The notes under the pieces were generated by a model that made no database searches, was not told where the DNA came from, and saw only the letters and a program-made list of their open reading frames with translations. Position numbers and translations under genes: made by a program. From the IMG/VR virus record IMGVR_UViG_2851933302_000006: a stretch of DNA of 16,351 nucleotides; one strand, written 5' to 3'. This document shows, in pieces, positions 4,206-7,569 of this stretch; position 1 is the first letter of the stretch, and every line of letters starts with the position of its first letter. Origin of the DNA: a virus. Lineage: Duplodnaviria; Heunggongvirae; Uroviricota; Caudoviricetes.

Positions 4206-4706
4206 TCATTCCAGACGCAGCGAATATGATTGTGTTTTTAACCGTACTGGCGGCAGTTCCTGTTTTTCATGCAGGCGTTCTGCCAGTTCGTCCGGCGTGA
4301 CCGGGCGGACAATGAAACGGTTGATGGTCTGAAGCGTTTTAAACACCAGACCACAGCCCGGATCCGTGCACACATAAAAACGCTCGGTGACTTCCTGAGA
4401 CAGACGCCGCGATGTTCTTGACAGTGCAAGGCCTTTACATCTCCGACAACAATATCCGGTAACAAGCATTCTTTTCGGGCGTTTCATACTGCCGGAGGCT
4501 GACGTCAGTGAATCGCGGTATCTCTGTTTGCCTGAAATGTATTCCATTCCTGAATCTTTACTGTCAGAGAAAAAGCTTTCACTCGCTTCAAATGTCGCAG
4601 AGCAATAAATATTCCGGCACTGTGCAATCATTATCTTGGTGCCATCGTCCATGAAATGTGCGCGGCGGGTGTGAGCAACATGTCCACACGACGGGCAGTA
4701 AATCAT
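4206..4706 (-). CDS. delta: Delta late transcriptional activator (tandem Ogr-type zinc finger).
   Basis: 166 aa with two Cys4 zinc-finger units (CPSCG...C..IYC and CCRRCKG...CTDPGCG), the duplicated Ogr-like architecture. Confidence 0.9.
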   Translation of the reverse strand: MIYCPSCGHVAHTRRAHFMDDGTKIMIAQCRNIYCSATFEASESFFSDSKDSGMEYISGKQRYRDSLTSASGSMKRPKRMLVTGYCCRRCKGLALSRTSRRLSQEVTERFYVCTDPGCGLVFKTLQTINRFIVRPVTPDELAERLHEKQELPPVRLKTQSYSLRLE

Positions 4707-5437
4707 GACAGCAGTCCTCTGGCCTTAAGCTCTGCTCCCTGCTGGTCTATTTTGTCCTGCCACACCTTGCGCTGTGCCGGTGTGCCTGCCACCTCATAAT
4801 CCATGTGCGGGAGTGTTGCCGCTGACAGTCCGGTCAGCCGGAGAACCGGCTCGCCGGTGAGGCTGATTTGCATCTGTTTTATTTTCTGTTCCAGCGATGA
4901 TTTCACCTGCTGCATGACAGCCTTTTCCGGTGCGACGTAGCCCTGATGGCCGGTGGTGTTGGCGAGCGGATTTTCCTGTACCTGGATGCTCAGATGCATT
5001 GCCCGGACAAGCGCCTCACAGGTTTCATTCAGGGCGTGTTCCAGCTCATGCTCTGCATACAGACTCAGCAGGTGATGATGTGCCTTCCGGTAGGCGGTGG
5101 CCGTGCTGTCACACGCCCCTTTCAGGCGTTCACGTTCGAAATTCAGCACCACGGCCAGATTGTCATATTCCTGTACCAGCTCCCGGCGTGCCACGCGCTC
5201 AATGTGGCGCTGTTTCAGCTCGTCGCTCAGGACACCACCGGCTGCACGAAAGGCCGTGCGCCAGTCGTCAGCGTCGTTTCCGTCGGCCTGCGCCAGCGCA
5301 TTTTTTTCCTGCTCTGCCCGTTCAATGGCCGTGACGGTCTCATCCATCAGGCGGGCGTTCTCAAGATGGGCGGCTCTGGCCTTTTCCAGTTGTGCCAGCG
5401 CGGGTTGCAGATATTCAGGGATGGTGTTGTCAGACAT
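4703..5437 (-). CDS. sid: Sid capsid size-determination (external scaffold) protein.
   Basis: The ORF track gives 266 aa from an upstream ATG. The internal ATG at 5437 (MSDNTIPEY...) gives 244 aa, has a GAGGAGCCGG RBS, and overlaps the delta start by 4 nt. It is coiled-coil-like and rich in A/E/L/Q. Confidence 0.85.
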   Translation of the reverse strand: MSDNTIPEYLQPALAQLEKARAAHLENARLMDETVTAIERAEQEKNALAQADGNDADDWRTAFRAAGGVLSDELKQRHIERVARRELVQEYDNLAVVLNFERERLKGACDSTATAYRKAHHHLLSLYAEHELEHALNETCEALVRAMHLSIQVQENPLANTTGHQGYVAPEKAVMQQVKSSLEQKIKQMQISLTGEPVLRLTGLSAATLPHMDYEVAGTPAQRKVWQDKIDQQGAELKARGLLS

Positions 5438-5459
5438 TTTCCGGCTCCTCGTCACTTCA

Positions 5460-5530
5460 GGTTGAGAAAATTGTGACGTACACCGGACAACAACACGACG
5501 CATTGCAGATGTGCCAGCCCTGACACAGGA
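5460..5530 (-). promoter_or_regulatory. Psid late promoter with two Delta/Ogr-type TGT-N12-ACA sites.
   Basis: Dyads are at 5510–5527 (TGT gccagccctgac ACA) and 5472–5489 (TGT gacgtacaccgg ACA). With the sid ATG at 5437, their centres fall near -55 and -18 of a start around 5462, matching what I recall for P4 late promoters. Confidence 0.6.
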
Positions 5531-5606: not shown

Positions 5607-5709
5607 TGTTCACCTCTGTTCACCATAAGAAAAAAATAAGTAATACAGTAAGTTAAAGGGTGAACAATCGCAGTAATGACTGTTCACCGTCTGTTCACCA
5701 CTGTTCACC
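5607..5709. repeat. Cluster of TGTTCACC iterons (five direct, one inverted): alpha-binding replication element, either ori1 or crr.
   Basis: TGTTCACC at 5607–5614, 5617–5624, 5681–5688, 5692–5699 and 5702–5709; inverted GGTGAACA at 5659–5666. The cluster is flanked by AT-rich DNA. Confidence 0.75.
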
Positions 5710-5867
5710 CGTTGATGGGCTTTTTATGCTGTTTATTACTGTTTATTTTTATTAATTCACTGAAATAAATAAGAAAAAACAATTTGTATTTCACTATAAT
5801 TTTTTCCAGCTCCTTCCAGAGCGTTTTAAAGCTATCTGGCGCTGATGTGCAAAAAACACACAGCCAT

Positions 5868-5935
5868 TGTAAGGCTGCCGGAACAAATCCCCCCTGTTGC
5901 GTCTGCTGAAAATATTCACAAAATAAAGCGCTACC
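5868..5935 (+). promoter_or_regulatory. Candidate divergent late promoter (PLL-like) with a TGT-N12-ACA site upstream of vis.
   Basis: TGT aaggctgccgga ACA at 5868–5885, about 55 nt upstream of a plausible start near 5931. I did not find a clean second dyad. Confidence 0.4.
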
Positions 5936-5987
5936 CGAAGCCGGACGGACTTATCCGGTGCTGTATGGACATTAACGAGGTAGCTCG

Positions 5988-6254
5988 ATGCAAGCTGTTT
6001 TTTCTTCCCCGTCTCCCGCCCCTGTGACGCCACTGATGCCGCTGCCGGACATCACGCAGGAGCGTTTTTTACGTCTGCCGGAAGTGATGCACCTGTGCGG
6101 CCTGTCACGCTCGACCATCTATGAACTCATCCGTAAGGGGGAATTTCCGCCGCAGGTGAGTCTTGGCGGTAAAAATGTGGCCTGGCTGCACTCTGAAGTC
6201 ACCGCATGGATGGCCGGGCGCATTGCCGGACGCAAACGGGGGTACGACGCATGA
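5988..6254 (+). CDS. vis: Vis / AlpA-family excisionase-like DNA-binding regulator.
   Basis: 88 aa, matching P4 orf88/Vis as recalled. Carries the AlpA-type helix-turn-helix ([26 protein letters not shown]). GAGG sits 7 nt upstream of the ATG. The internal ATG at 6036 is an alternative start. Confidence 0.75.
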
Positions 6255-6289
6255 TGATGCCCGCTCTGCAAAAACTCCCTTTTTCTGGC

Positions 6290-6319
6290 TTGCCTTTTTC
6301 CGGCATTTGCGGATATAGT
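6290..6319 (+). promoter_or_regulatory. Candidate sigma70 early promoter (PLE-like).
   Basis: TTGCCT (6290–6295), about 18-nt spacer, TATAGT (6314–6319). The first immunity-like segment begins about 25 nt downstream. Confidence 0.4.
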
Positions 6320-6343
6320 TTTTCCGCTGCCGCAAAATCGGCA

Positions 6344-6612
6344 GCCGGGCGTGAGAACCCGAGTATGTTATCGGCGACATATGACGCGCCATGCGTCTTT
6401 TTTTGTGTCGCAATCAACGCCACAGAGCGCCAGATTATGGTGTGGCGTGTGGTTTGCCGTGCAGGTATGATCCTGTTCGCAATCGCATGTTATGCCACTG
6501 AGTCAATGGTAGCTCAGGCGGGGCAGCCTCCGGGCTGGCCGGTATCCGATAACGCCGGTATTCTCACCCCCGTCTGGGCTATCGCCATCGAGCGTGAGAA
6601 CTCCGGCGATAG
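6344..6612 (+). promoter_or_regulatory. RNA-immunity-like region: two direct segments (seqA-like, seqC-like) each complementary to an intervening segment (seqB-like, CI-RNA-like).
   Basis: 6344–6376 and 6588–6612 share GCGTGAGAAC. 6544–6571 contains CCGATAAC...TTCTCACCCCCG, complementary to both in two blocks. Confidence 0.45.
6520..6590 (+). ncRNA. Possible CI-like immunity RNA containing the seqB-like segment; boundaries are approximate.
   Basis: Position and complementarity pattern only. The processing sites cannot be determined from sequence. Confidence 0.3.
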
Positions 6613-6833
6613 CGTCATTTACGCTGTTATCGGAGGTTGCCTTATGGCTACGACCCTTACCCCCTCACACCCTGAATTTGTCTTTGTGTTTGCCGCTGTC
6701 CGTCGCGCAGACCGCCATCCCCGTATCTGTATGCTTCGCACCGTCGCCGGTGATGAACGCAGCGCCCGCCGTTCCCTTGTCCGTGACTATGTGCTCTCCC
6801 TTGCTGCCCGTCTGCCGGTGGTGGAGGTGTCCC

Positions 6834-7121
6834 GTGCGTAATAAAAAAGCCCCTCAGACCGTCTCAGCGCGTCATGACGCCCGTGAACACCTCAGCATTG
6901 AGGCTTACCATAAGCTCAACCGCGCCAGCGCCGTATCCCGGTTTGTTGGGGGTGATTTGATTCACCGTGAACTCTCCGGCCTGCATCAGCTCTACATTCC
7001 GCATATTTTCAGCTACCTGAATGAAGATATTGATTTTGTGCTGAATGAGCTGAAAGCCAAAGGCCTGTGCCGCGATTTTCTCGCCCAGCAGAAAGACCGG
7101 GGAGACAAGACGCATGTTTGA
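6834..7121 (+). CDS. epsilon: Epsilon-like protein (helper-prophage derepressor in P4).
   Basis: A GTG start at 6834 with a GGAGG RBS 6 nt upstream gives 95 aa, the recalled length of P4 Epsilon. Its stop overlaps the orf151 start. Confidence 0.65.
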
Positions 7122-7569
7122 TTTTCCCCAGCCCGGTGAGATTTACCGTTCTGCCGGTTTTCCCGATGTGGCCGTGGTCGGCATTCTGGAAGACGGTATT
7201 CCGTGGGAAATGCCGTACCGCTGCCCGGACATTGTCTGGAATCCGTACCGCCGTAAATTCAGTATCCTTGTGCGTATCCTCGCTGACGGGCGCACCACAG
7301 ACATCCCGCTGGGGCGTTTTCTGCGGGAATTTACCTGTGACCGTCCTGACCTGTTCAAACGCAGCCCCGTAAACCGGCATGCGGTACTGAAAGAAATGGC
7401 CGGAGACCCGGAATTACAGAAATGGCGGGAAAAATATCTGGATATTTACCCGCAGGACACTGTTCCGGTCAGCCGGGCAGCACCGGTGGCGCGGGAATGG
7501 CGGGAAATTCCCCGCACGGAGCCTGACCCGGAAACCACCCCGGATAACAGTTACCGCAATTATCTGTAA
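7114..7569 (+). CDS. orf151-like protein, conserved P4 left-operon ORF of unknown function.
   Basis: Exactly 151 aa, in operon position between epsilon and alpha. Confidence 0.7.
   Translation: MFDFPQPGEIYRSAGFPDVAVVGILEDGIPWEMPYRCPDIVWNPYRRKFSILVRILADGRTTDIPLGRFLREFTCDRPDLFKRSPVNRHAVLKEMAGDPELQKWREKYLDIYPQDTVPVSRAAPVAREWREIPRTEPDPETTPDNSYRNYL

Follow-up and report, generated by a model that had tools for sequence, protein, structure and literature searches.

Genes around the locus

The window (the whole 16,351-nucleotide stretch of DNA that we analysed) carries an element with the full P4 gene order: int, psu, delta, sid, alpA/ORF88, epsilon, orf151 and alpha. At the level of the whole element, it has the features expected of a P4-like satellite, and the P4 core genes are all full length. 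A record from E. coli O18 is 100% identical to the window, and the element is integrated adjoining tRNA-Leu. Going by its sequence, the satellite prophage at tRNA-Leu is intact-looking. These genes lie in and around the region of interest (6290-6612):

5988-6254, + strand: ORF88/AlpA-family (Vis-like) gene, homologue of P4 ORF88 (Pfam Phage_AlpA, E = 7e-21)
6251-6841, + strand: long ORF homologous to eta, 196 aa from the ATG at 6251 or 211 aa from the ATG at 6206
6644-6841, + strand: kil / Icd-like gene, 65 aa (NCBIfam NF033153 phage_ICD_like, E = 1.6e-21)
6834-7121, + strand: epsilon, the helper derepression protein (Pfam PF25738 Derepression, E = 1e-50; P4 annotation)
downstream of epsilon: orf151, DUF5375 and the alpha primase (alpha at 8040-10373, by its alpha domains)

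These genes are tightly packed. The stop codon of ORF88 overlaps the start codon of eta (ATGA, 6251-6254), kil is the last 65 codons of the long ORF, and the GTG start of epsilon overlaps the stop codon shared by kil and eta. Of the cargo genes downstream in the controlled operon, epsilon comes first. Kil has the same protein sequence as the 65-aa ORF of P4. The 140 nt upstream of ORF88, where a PLL may lie, are 98-100% identical to the part of P4 where the late promoter PLL lies.

In the RefSeq record that is 100% identical to the window, PGAP annotates 6251-6841 as a single "Icd-like" CDS and annotates no RNA. The same CDS names appear on the other listed E. coli matches. The P4 immunity region is 87% identical to positions 6290-6646, and it is also 87% identical over the 381 nt at 6280-6660 (13% of positions differ). 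In this alignment, almost no differences fall in the promoter, the a blocks, the CI stems or kil. We identified these RNA features and control sites:

6290-6319, + strand: PLE-type constitutive promoter, sigma-70-like (-35 TTGCCT at 6290-6295, 18-nt spacer, -10 TATAGT at 6314-6319), with predicted activity
6326-6404, + strand: seqA leader / IsrK-like short RNA, comprising a hairpin (6326-6345), a small hairpin with a1 in its loop, b1 and an intrinsic terminator
6347-6357, + strand: a1 target block, GGGCGTGAGAA, which pairs with a' except for one C-C mismatch (6350/6568)
6367-6374, + strand: b1 target block, GTTATCGG, which pairs with b' (the P4 equivalent is TTCACAGG)
6383-6404, + strand: t1-like intrinsic terminator, from a terminator scan (stem 6383-6397, T run 6398-6404)
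6502-6589, + strand: CI / C4 antisense RNA (Rfam RF01695), with a predicted mature RNA of about 80 nt (about 6508-6587)
6545-6553, + strand: b' recognition block, TCCGATAAC, in the loop of the second CI hairpin; a specificity block unlike that of P4
6561-6571, + strand: a' recognition block, TTCTCACCCCC, in a single-stranded CI junction; identical to P4
6578-6586 and 6605-6613, + strand: arms of a hairpin that displays a2 (6590-6600, core GTGAGAA at 6594-6600) in its loop
6626-6634, + strand: b2 target block, GTTATCGGA, which overlaps the kil Shine-Dalgarno sequence (GGAGG, 6632-6636)

The promoter, the seqA leader and the CI RNA

A preliminary description, made from the sequence alone, had proposed a sigma70-like promoter followed by an RNA immunity region laid out as in P4 (CI, seqA and seqC). 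The promoter at 6290-6319 is identical in P4, and its -10 hexamer is labelled as a consensus -10 in the P4 record X02534. The -10 is also conserved in one of our alignments (A2). When we scanned 5700-7200, this was the only promoter-like site, and it lies directly upstream of seqA, as PLE does in P4. Transcription from this predicted promoter would start at about 6326.

The leader that follows matches two Rfam families above their gathering scores. The match to isrK (RF01394) runs from 6326 to 6403 with 71.2 bits (gathering score 50) and covers the model end to end, including the terminator. The match to c4-a1b1 (RF03163) runs from 6313 to 6365 with 50.8 bits (gathering score 46.7). The window has the two 5' hairpins of these families, with a1 shown by the second one, and then the terminator that is part of isrK. 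Across 29 aligned loci, the helices of the seqA leader and the terminator are 97-100% paired. The minimum free energy (MFE) fold includes a third hairpin at 6363-6382, which we rejected: it is only 33-50% paired across loci.

The third family match is to the C4 antisense RNA (RF01695, 74.2 bits, E = 3e-13, gathering score 45), and it is full-length (model positions 1-87). The closing stem of CI (6508-6523 with 6568-6583) encloses two internal hairpins. RNA folding had been suggested as a check, and it bears the proposal out: the MFE of CI is -47.4 kcal/mol (z = -4.4), and the MFE fold is identical to the structure of the RF01695 model. In the 29 loci, all three CI helices are 100% paired, and they contain compensatory changes as well as changes from G-C to G-U. 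In the P4 record X02534, the span of CI is annotated as a region of dyad symmetry. Others have equated Rfam's C4 with the CI RNA of P4, and isrK and c4-a1b1 with seqA (PMC3632133, PMC4825925). With 87% identity to P4, three Rfam matches and the gene order of P4, the proposed layout holds.

Pairing between CI and its targets

The direct repeat that drew attention to this region is present: CGGGCGTGAGAAC at 6346-6358 and CGAGCGTGAGAAC at 6589-6601. Each copy was said to be complementary, in two blocks, to the segment between them. Both copies do pair with it, and a1 and b1 are as claimed, but the second block of the downstream target is at 6626-6634, outside of the segment that had been assigned to it (6588-6612). 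The complementarity is 88% for 6342-6357 with 6561-6576, 77% for 6547-6572 with 6589-6614, and 100% for 6367-6374 with 6546-6553. In other words, as in P4, CI holds recognition sequences that are complementary to seqA upstream and to seqC downstream, all on the same strand.

These repeats are unlikely to have arisen by chance, because the 8-mer GTTATCGG occurs just three times in the 16.3-kb window (0.45 expected), always at the immunity locus and in the order +, -, +, and because shuffled sequences rarely reproduce the pattern. Among 5000 dinucleotide-preserving shuffles of 6326-6640, an 8-mer arrangement of word, reverse complement and word arose 14 times, and two separate 7-mer triples arose 5 times.

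If complementarity were not conserved among relatives, this would argue against a P4-like system. It is clearly conserved, by way of compensatory changes. In the 29 aligned loci, 91.8% of the seqA-CI pairs are paired, and 128 cells have changed on both sides (39 in shuffles). The covariation score for these pairs is 0.646, as compared to 0.193 in shuffles (0 of 500 reach 0.646) and at most 0.117 in slid controls. For the CI-seqC pairs in the same loci, 85.8% are paired, with a score of 0.593 (0.181 in shuffles, with 0 of 500 reaching the observed score, and at most 0.124 in slid controls).

We also considered a broader set of loci. A genome-wide pattern scan gave 120 loci, and in high-GC genomes many of its matches were due to chance. 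We removed roughly half of the 120, which failed a filter for the hairpin and the closing stem. In 55 non-redundant loci, a locus's own targets match for at least 7 nt in 71-91% of cases, while mismatched partners do so in 2-4%. These loci have 23 variants of a' and 35 variants of b', in 42 combinations. All 29 loci lack a pair at column 97/328, inside the helices between a' and its targets; this conserved mismatch limits the a block to 7 contiguous pairs. Because seqA, CI and seqC are all on one transcript, sequence alone cannot separate pairing in cis from pairing in trans.

The downstream target and the start of kil

In seqC, the core pairs between a' and a2 covary. Because a2 and b2 are one base further apart in the window, its row in the family alignment is displaced by one column. 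The b'-b2 helix is 93.5% paired in the family register, as compared to 55.9% in the register set from the window's row. We also considered another second block for seqC, in which CCGGCG (6602-6607) would pair with CGCCGG (6554-6559), and rejected it. This match, which the preliminary description had probably counted, is not a recognition block. CCGGCG contains the palindrome CCGG, and it adjoins the 3' arm of the hairpin that displays a2, with three bases in common.

This hairpin is 98.9% paired across the 29 loci, and three of its pairs have changed on both sides. Its 5' arm has 6 nt in common with the 3' arm of CI's closing stem. From these sequences, a hairpin that shares an arm with the CI stem could link the release of CI to the exposure of a2.

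The b2 block (6626-6634) reaches into the translation start region of kil, whose ATG is at 6644, and kil is nested within eta, as in P4. Also, kil is the first gene that can be translated from the PLE transcript.

A maintained reading frame across the RNA elements

The long ORF crosses seqA, CI and seqC in the frame of kil. The preliminary description considered this 211-aa ORF to be suspect. We disagree: it is the homologue of P4's eta, P4 has the same ORF, and the frame is open in 24 of 25 relatives. In all of the relatives with an intact kil/Icd-like gene, the eta frame has no stop codon in the 354-525 nt before the kil ATG, as compared to 18-264 and 15-48 nt for the other two frames. The sole exception (locus L120) has a truncated kil. 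Similarly, in 24 of 25 loci the seqA hairpin and the kil ATG are separated by a number of nucleotides that is divisible by 3, with six different lengths. Because the long ORF is open and in frame in 24/25 relatives, the region, as judged from these alignments, is both protein-coding and RNA-bearing: the RNA elements sit inside a maintained reading frame. (Kil has been summarised as a truncated form of Eta, PMC10111431.)

The stretch that holds the RNA elements also matches the protein family Phage_ASH from Pfam (amino acids 37-158 of the long ORF, or nucleotides 6314-6679). This is a clear case of a maintained frame over structured regulatory RNAs, which gene finders and protein-family databases (Phage_ASH, for example) do not separate. 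Outside of the kil-bearing group of Enterobacterales, the same RNA layout precedes unrelated genes.

A probable specificity allele unlike that of P4

In the alignment to P4 that had been proposed as a check, the a blocks are identical and the b blocks have changed coherently. The b block in the CI loop is CCTGTGAA in P4 and CCGATAAC in the window, which differ at 4 of 8 positions, and both targets have followed: from P4 to the window, seqA changes from TTCACAGG to GTTATCGG, and seqC changes from TTCACAGGAGG to GTTATCGGAGG. The predicted duplex energies are -32.6 to -36.9 kcal/mol for cognate pairs and -25.3 to -28.2 kcal/mol for P4-by-window hybrids, so the window's duplexes with P4 partners are predicted to be 5-9 kcal/mol weaker. 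The combination of P4's a block with another b block, in the CI RNA as well as in its two targets, probably gives a distinct or partly distinct immunity specificity. Full heteroimmunity to P4 is not assured because the a block is common to both.

Otherwise, the window and P4 share PLE, seqA, t1, the CI RNA (seqB), seqC and kil/eta in the same order. They also share an identical promoter, a blocks, CI stems and Kil; a nested eta/kil frame with putative coupling to ORF88; and the downstream genes epsilon, orf151 and alpha. The remaining differences are small. Relative to P4, the window lacks 9 nt (in frame) between the terminator and CI, its a2-to-b2 spacing is 1 nt longer, and its spacing from the Shine-Dalgarno sequence to the ATG is 1 nt shorter.

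The immI region of P1 and P7 (c4, a1/b1, a2/b2, icd and ant) is another close counterpart. Like the window, it has an RF01695 RNA with RF03163 targets upstream, two recognition blocks, duplicated targets on both sides, a downstream target that covers the ribosome binding site of an Icd-like gene, and a gene for lifting repression after that (ant in P1, epsilon in the window). The c4-icd-ant operon of P1 has been described, with c4 as an antisense RNA and with C1 adding repression (PMC8198154). The window differs from immI in that its element is a satellite, whereas immI belongs to a plasmid prophage; its cargo includes a replication primase; its antirepressor is unrelated in sequence (PF25738); an intrinsic terminator follows a1/b1; and a long eta frame runs over the RNAs. 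We considered whether the locus could be classified as an immI operon and rejected this, although it would function in the same manner: the RNA and the Icd-like gene are present, but the next gene is epsilon (PF25738), which is not from the Ant family.

Two other kinds of elements have similar RNAs. In Salmonella, Gifsy-1 encodes IsrK, with STnc1160 downstream, and 6326-6403 of the window fits the isrK model throughout. STnc1160 has been proposed to act like CI on the terminator of IsrK (PMC4825925). IsrK, from a lambdoid prophage, is described as activating the translation of a longer isoform (orf45/anrP), while the window is from a P4-like satellite with kil downstream. The linear-plasmid prophages phiKO2, PY54 and NAR688 have C4-like RNAs: their DNA is partly similar to the window's CI segment (75-82%), and that of phiKO2 and NAR688 also to its seqA segment. 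These are full-size temperate phages with other downstream genes, and only short stretches of them align with the window.

More broadly, the two blocks might form a combinatorial, recombining address, by which P4-like satellites and other C4 elements would fall into many mutually orthogonal immunity groups, the window being one of them. We offer this as a tentative idea. All four combinations of two a' types and two b' types are found; in a Pantoea element, the b' of P4 is joined to a different a'; and the window combines the a' of P4 with a b' that is absent from the other 54 species representatives.

Proposed mechanism and alternatives

Overall, we conclude, with a probability of roughly 90%, that this region is the RNA-based switch by which a P4-like satellite prophage of E. 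coli maintains immunity (lysogeny) and that it works as CI, seqA and seqC do in P4. Our analysis directly shows the homology, the matches to RNA families, the fold, the pairings and how they covary, the ribosome binding site that b2 overlaps, and the conserved frame. This class of mechanism is already known from P4 and P1; the new part is a specificity allele with a b recognition block unlike that of P4.

The steps would be as follows. The constitutive promoter PLE (6290-6319) would drive a leader with seqA (a1 and b1), the intrinsic terminator, the CI RNA, and seqC (a2 and b2). By analogy to P4, CI (about 80 nt, 6508-6587) would be cut from the leader and would build up. Its exposed b' (in a hairpin loop) and a' (in a junction) would then act in trans on later transcripts. 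Pairing with a1 and b1 would favour stopping at the terminator (6383-6404), and pairing with a2 and b2 would cover the ribosome binding site of kil (6632-6636). If kil is not translated, transcription would not reach epsilon and the alpha primase, which would leave the satellite quiescent. Transcripts from the upstream late promoter would escape this control, as ribosomes coupled to alpA would read the long eta frame through seqA, CI and seqC. The ATGA overlap, the open eta frame, the frame-preserving lengths in 24/25 loci and the P4-like upstream region are sequence features that would be consistent with this escape.

In P4, CI is released by RNase P at its 5' end and by exonucleolytic trimming (by PNPase) at its 3' end. 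Pairing with P4's CI leads to premature termination, both at the intrinsic terminator after seqA and at a Rho-dependent site within or after kil; the sites in P4 are named t1 and timm. The processing of CI, its action in trans, Rho-dependent termination, and the escape of late-promoter transcripts are taken from work on P4 and P1. The mechanism of P4 immunity has been summarised before (PMC4825925, PMC3632133, PMC10111431).

Could the region encode only protein, as a fusion of an Eta/Ash-family domain and an Icd-like Kil, with the repeats as by-products of coding and with no function as RNA? The long ORF spans the whole region with a conserved frame, it matches Phage_ASH, and PGAP annotates just the CDS. 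But the variable blocks change together at three sites, which keeps the base pairing while radically altering the encoded residues, and an intrinsic terminator lies within the ORF. Given also three Rfam covariance models above threshold, CI helices that stay fully paired through compensatory changes, and the same layout before unrelated genes outside of the kil-bearing Enterobacterales, we find this explanation scarcely credible. Decay is another potential explanation: many of the P4-like islands in E. coli are defective, so the RNA elements might be inherited remnants with no current function. This is highly improbable for an element with full-length core genes, whose four target blocks still match CI even though the region differs from P4 at 13% of positions, and whose b' allele is kept in 202 complete genomes.

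Two other explanations accept that the RNAs are functional. The complementary segments might act only in cis, through alternative long-range folds of the leader (an attenuator), with no processed RNA that acts in trans. The single transcript would allow this, and alternative folds do exist, as the conserved hairpin (6578-6586 with 6605-6613) competes with the closing stem of CI. However, the homologous CI of P4 has been described as conferring immunity as a processed antisense RNA (PMC4825925, PMC3632133, PMC10111431); the closed and very stable fold (-47.4 kcal/mol) is typical of a stable released RNA; and the duplicated flanking targets match the layout of c4 from P1/P7, which is described as an antisense RNA (PMC8198154). 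We consider a mechanism that is purely in cis to be very unlikely. Or the short transcript from PLE to the terminator (6326-6404) might be the main regulator, as a dual-function small RNA like IsrK, which acts in trans on the longer isoform and switches on downstream translation, as in Gifsy-1. Besides the isrK match (71.2 bits), P4's seqA has been called a structural homologue of IsrK (PMC4825925), and in a transposon-insertion screen (TraDIS) of S. Typhi, IsrK-like elements of P4-like prophages were required (PMC3632133). Such a role is compatible with control by CI, rather than exclusive of it, but a1 and b1 covary with CI, so their main selected partner is CI, and the targets in Gifsy-1 (orf45/anrP) have no counterpart in the window. 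As the main account of the locus, it seems unlikely.

Distribution and implications

Protein-only annotations hide the element that probably keeps the satellite silent. We noted one paper on RNA-seq and ribosome profiling of EHEC that mentions C4 and isrK, and it left both families out of its analysis. The locus is also a natural allele, with P4's a block and a b block that is swapped three times, and it could show which block decides the cross-immunity of satellites that reside together. More generally, the matched a/b triplets in the 55 loci could help to predict which satellites can coexist, and they are possible orthogonal antisense parts.

The window's type of b' is present in 202 of 5,426 complete genomes of E. 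coli, and some O157:H7 genomes have two copies of the window-type block. The idea that identical immunity types exclude each other from a genome fails.

RNAs of the immunity region

On the + strand, three Rfam families matched above their curated thresholds. These are listed with the other elements that we located, including the recognition blocks (a' and b') of the candidate immunity RNA, CI, and the blocks (a2 and b2) of its downstream target, seqC.

6313-6365, + strand: c4-a1b1 (Rfam, 50.8 bits)
6326-6403, + strand: isrK (Rfam, 71.2 bits)
6383-6397, + strand: stem of an intrinsic terminator, with a T run to 6404 (terminator scan and fold)
6502-6589, + strand: C4 antisense RNA, or CI (Rfam, 74.2 bits)
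6545-6553, + strand: b', exposed by the loop of the second CI hairpin
6561-6571, + strand: a', exposed in the CI junction
6594-6600, + strand: core of a2, in a hairpin loop 3' of CI (hairpin arms: 6578-6586, 6605-6613)
6626-6634, + strand: b2, overlapping GGAGG (6632-6636) 5' of ATG 6644

These Rfam families are the P4 immunity RNAs, CI and seqA (PMC4825925, which also summarises the mechanism), and they are curated families (Weinberg et al. 2010, PMC2864571). The preliminary description had proposed P4-style RNA immunity, and both alignment and folding agree: window 6280-6660 is 87% identical to P4, and CI folds as in the Rfam model, with a 16-bp closing stem (6508-6523 with 6568-6583) around two hairpins (minimum free energy -47.4 kcal/mol, z-score -4.4). 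The immunity system itself is already known, and this locus is a new specificity member, not a new kind. In old P4 records, the immunity region is labelled as a "cI" or "ash" protein gene; the -10 hexamer in those records coincides with TATAGT at 6314-6319, and the dyad-symmetry region coincides with the closing stem of CI (6508-6583). The upstream sigma-70-like promoter that was noticed earlier (PLE; TTGCCT, an 18-nt spacer, and TATAGT, at 6290-6319) is the only such site in 5700-7200.

From about 6326, the leader is predicted to fold into a hairpin, a small hairpin with a1 in its loop, b1, and then the intrinsic terminator. (The blocks a1 and b1 form the upstream target, seqA.) The 65-aa product that starts at ATG 6644 matches NCBIfam's phage_ICD_like (E = 1.6e-21) and is identical to a 65-aa P4 ORF, which has been described as Kil, a truncated form of Eta (PMC10111431). 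The hairpin that displays a2 and the 3' arm of the CI closing stem have 6 nt in common, so the unprocessed leader should have two mutually exclusive folds.

The complementary arrangement is real and is not due to chance. Direct reading and a repeat finder both identified a direct repeat (CGGGCGTGAGAAC at 6346-6358 and CGAGCGTGAGAAC at 6589-6601), and the repeat finder reported a middle segment that is complementary to both copies (6342-6357 with 6561-6576, 6367-6374 with 6546-6553, and 6547-6572 with 6589-6614). The whole window has three copies of GTTATCGG, all in the immunity region and in the order +, -, +, and four copies of GTGAGAA, with three of these in the immunity region and again in that order. 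When we shuffled 6326-6640 while preserving dinucleotides (n = 5000), we saw an 8-mer triple of this order 14 times and two separate 7-mer triples 5 times. The preliminary description had reported this arrangement up to 6612; past that range there is one more match, a perfect 9-nt complement between 6545-6553 and 6626-6634.

Compensatory changes between P4 and the window

The most informative single result is the pairwise alignment of P4 and the window. Identity is complete or almost complete in the promoter, the first hairpin of seqA, both a target blocks, the stems of CI, a', and the coding sequence of kil. What differs is concentrated in three short patches, which have changed in concert.

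Patches that differ between P4 and the window
CI loop (b'): P4 CCTGTGAA; window CCGATAAC
seqA (b1): P4 TTCACAGG; window GTTATCGG
seqC (b2 plus SD): P4 TTCACAGGAGG; window GTTATCGGAGG

This is a three-way compensatory change, which selection for RNA-RNA pairing would predict and which protein conservation would not fit. For cognate pairs, the predicted duplex energies were -32.6 to -36.9 kcal/mol; P4-by-window hybrids were weaker, at -25.3 to -28.2 kcal/mol. Taken by itself, the b block gave -11.5 to -14.5 (cognate) vs. -2.7 to -9.2 kcal/mol (hybrid).

Pairing and covariation across the family

We scanned one genome per species for the pattern of the conserved first half of CI and obtained 120 loci, which were filtered to 55 non-redundant C4-like loci (including P4 and the window). 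These have 23 variants of a', 35 variants of b', and 42 combinations. At the canonical positions, exact complements of at least 7 nt to the locus's own blocks were found for a1 in 91%, b1 in 71%, a2 in 91%, and b2 in 82% of the 55 loci; with partners from loci that have different blocks, complements of at least 7 nt were found in just 2-4%. The blocks keep a regular spacing: the start of b1 is 16 nt downstream of a1, and that of b2 is about 31 nt downstream of a2.

We quantified covariation in an alignment of 29 sequences from the Enterobacterales group. For seqA with CI, 91.8% were paired, and both sides had changed in 128 cells (vs. 39 in shuffles); the covariation score was 0.646 vs. 0.193 in shuffles (reached by 0 of 500), with slid controls at or below 0.117. 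For CI with seqC, in the family register, 85.8% were paired, and the score was 0.593 vs. 0.181 (0 of 500 shuffles), with slid controls at or below 0.124. The internal helices of CI and the leader were 97-100% paired in the 29 loci, and the hairpin that displays a2 was 98.9% paired, with changes on both sides of 3 pairs. The preliminary description had said that loss of complementarity among relatives would refute its reading; clearly there is no such loss, as the pairings are kept and covary in the 29-sequence alignment and among the 55 loci.

The a' and b' blocks assort independently (in the C4-like subset of loci L003-L122 and window 6545-6571), which suggests recombination between the specificity blocks. 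For example, b' AATAAG and b' ATTGAG are each found with a' TTACGCCAACCC and with a' TATTCCTACCCC, and in one Pantoea genome (L072), the b' of P4 accompanies an a' other than P4's. Some C4 loci do not precede kil (L010, L041, L056, L040, L061, and others, from Ralstonia, Cupriavidus, Burkholderia, Thiothrix, and some Enterobacterales). They keep the layout of a1/b1, C4, and a2/b2, and their first gene is unrelated (100-275 aa, not Icd-like), so the RNA module seems to be portable between different cargo genes.

The long eta ORF

The 211-aa ORF that overlies these RNAs had been judged suspect; the evidence instead favours a genuine ORF. The same long frame is present in P4 (214 aa, or 199 aa from an ATG that overlaps the ORF88 stop; the window has an ATGA overlap at 6251-6254). 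In all relatives whose kil/Icd-like gene is intact, the frame of the kil ATG extends upstream without a stop codon for 354-525 nt; the corresponding lengths for the other two frames are 18-264 and 15-48 nt. The kil ATG lies 273, 276, 279, 282, 312, or 321 nt from the first seqA hairpin, a multiple of three in 24 of 25 loci; the indel between P4 and the window is 9 nt. The best reading, therefore, is of a genuine long ORF superimposed on the RNA elements. The sole exception (L120) has a frame-breaking distance of 281 nt and a kil truncated to 50 aa, and is probably a decaying copy. According to PMC10111431, which summarises Forti et al. 1999, translation of full-length Eta occurs solely on transcripts of the upstream late promoter, is coupled to that of the alpA homologue, and prevents termination.

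Pfam's Phage_ASH (PF10554) matches amino acids 37-158 of the eta ORF, or nt 6314-6679, which is the stretch with the seqA, CI, and seqC elements. The methods of PMC8628076 give PF10554 as the profile for epsilon. The epsilon gene in the window matches another family:

6834-7121: epsilon (PF25738), with a GTG start at 6834 that overlaps the kil stop (6839-6841)

What the survey in PMC8628076 followed may therefore have been the immunity region and not epsilon.

Mechanism and alternatives

The homology, the RNA families, the fold, all four pairings with their covariation, and the terminator were observed or computed here, and it was also established that b2 overlaps the ribosome-binding site, that the frame is conserved, and which genes lie downstream. 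The dynamic steps are drawn from work on P4 and P1 (the cited summaries, with the work of Dehò/Ghisotti and of Schuster as background). By analogy, PLE would be constitutive, and CI would be excised from the leader, with RNase P making the 5' end and exonucleolytic trimming making the 3' end, to give a stable RNA that acts in trans. Pairing of CI with seqA would increase termination at the intrinsic terminator, and pairing with seqC would block translation of kil, allowing Rho-dependent termination before epsilon and alpha. Transcripts from the late promoter would escape because ribosomes translating eta pass through the targets.

If the region encoded only a protein, there would be no reason for the changes to preserve pairing, and they do, so that reading is contradicted. 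Attenuation purely in cis is compatible with the sequence but conflicts with what is reported for P4, and a dead remnant is unlikely because both the genes and the complementarity are intact. If the short leader RNA has an IsrK-like role in trans, this would fit alongside CI-mediated immunity and may add to it.

Distribution and annotation

We searched with a 45-nt probe that has b' at its centre, so that only an identical block can give a match. The window's allele was found in 202 of 5426 complete E. coli genomes, and P4's allele in 277. The window's b' is absent from the other 54 species-representative loci.

In RefSeq, PGAP gives the name "host cell division inhibitor Icd-like protein" to the whole 196-aa eta/kil frame (NZ_CP007275 3901707-3902297, or window 6251-6841). 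The Icd-like family match covers only its last 48-65 residues. No RNA feature is annotated over 6251-6841 in this 100%-identical record, despite the three Rfam matches above threshold. Among the E. coli matches listed for the window and P4 alleles, the same Icd-like CDS name lies under the match.

The host element

Window 5900-7200 is 100% identical to a chromosome segment of E. coli strain O18, whose annotated record places it within a P4-like satellite prophage adjoining tRNA-Leu. Its genes run from the integrase through a small accessory block to psu, delta, sid, a gene of AlpA type, the "Icd-like" gene, and four more CDSs, the last of which is the primase; P4 has the same order. Three of those four CDSs have hypothetical or DUF5375 labels in the O18 record. 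By comparison to P4 and Pfam, the first is epsilon and the others are counterparts of orf151 and ORF106. Pfam confirms Psu, Ogr/Delta, AlpA, the "Derepression" family (epsilon), DUF5375, and primase domains in the element. The region 5' of ORF88 is 98-100% identical to P4. The sid-homologous ORF (4703-5503, - strand), which has no Pfam match, is 266 aa from its most upstream ATG, while the RefSeq and P4 version is 244 aa.

The region 3' of the alpha primase (10587-15216) could be flanking chromosome or else a second region for cargo or defence. It has 111-aa and 658-aa ORFs, with no family match in Pfam or PADLOC, followed by an endonuclease gene:

14287-15216, - strand: HNH endonuclease (RefSeq: phosphorothioated-DNA-binding restriction endonuclease)

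The integrase-psu hotspot carries a complete Kiwa defence pair (1324-2741, - strand):

1324-2217, - strand: KwaB (E = 6.5e-117)
2226-2741, - strand: KwaA (E = 1.6e-76), labelled only as hypothetical in RefSeq
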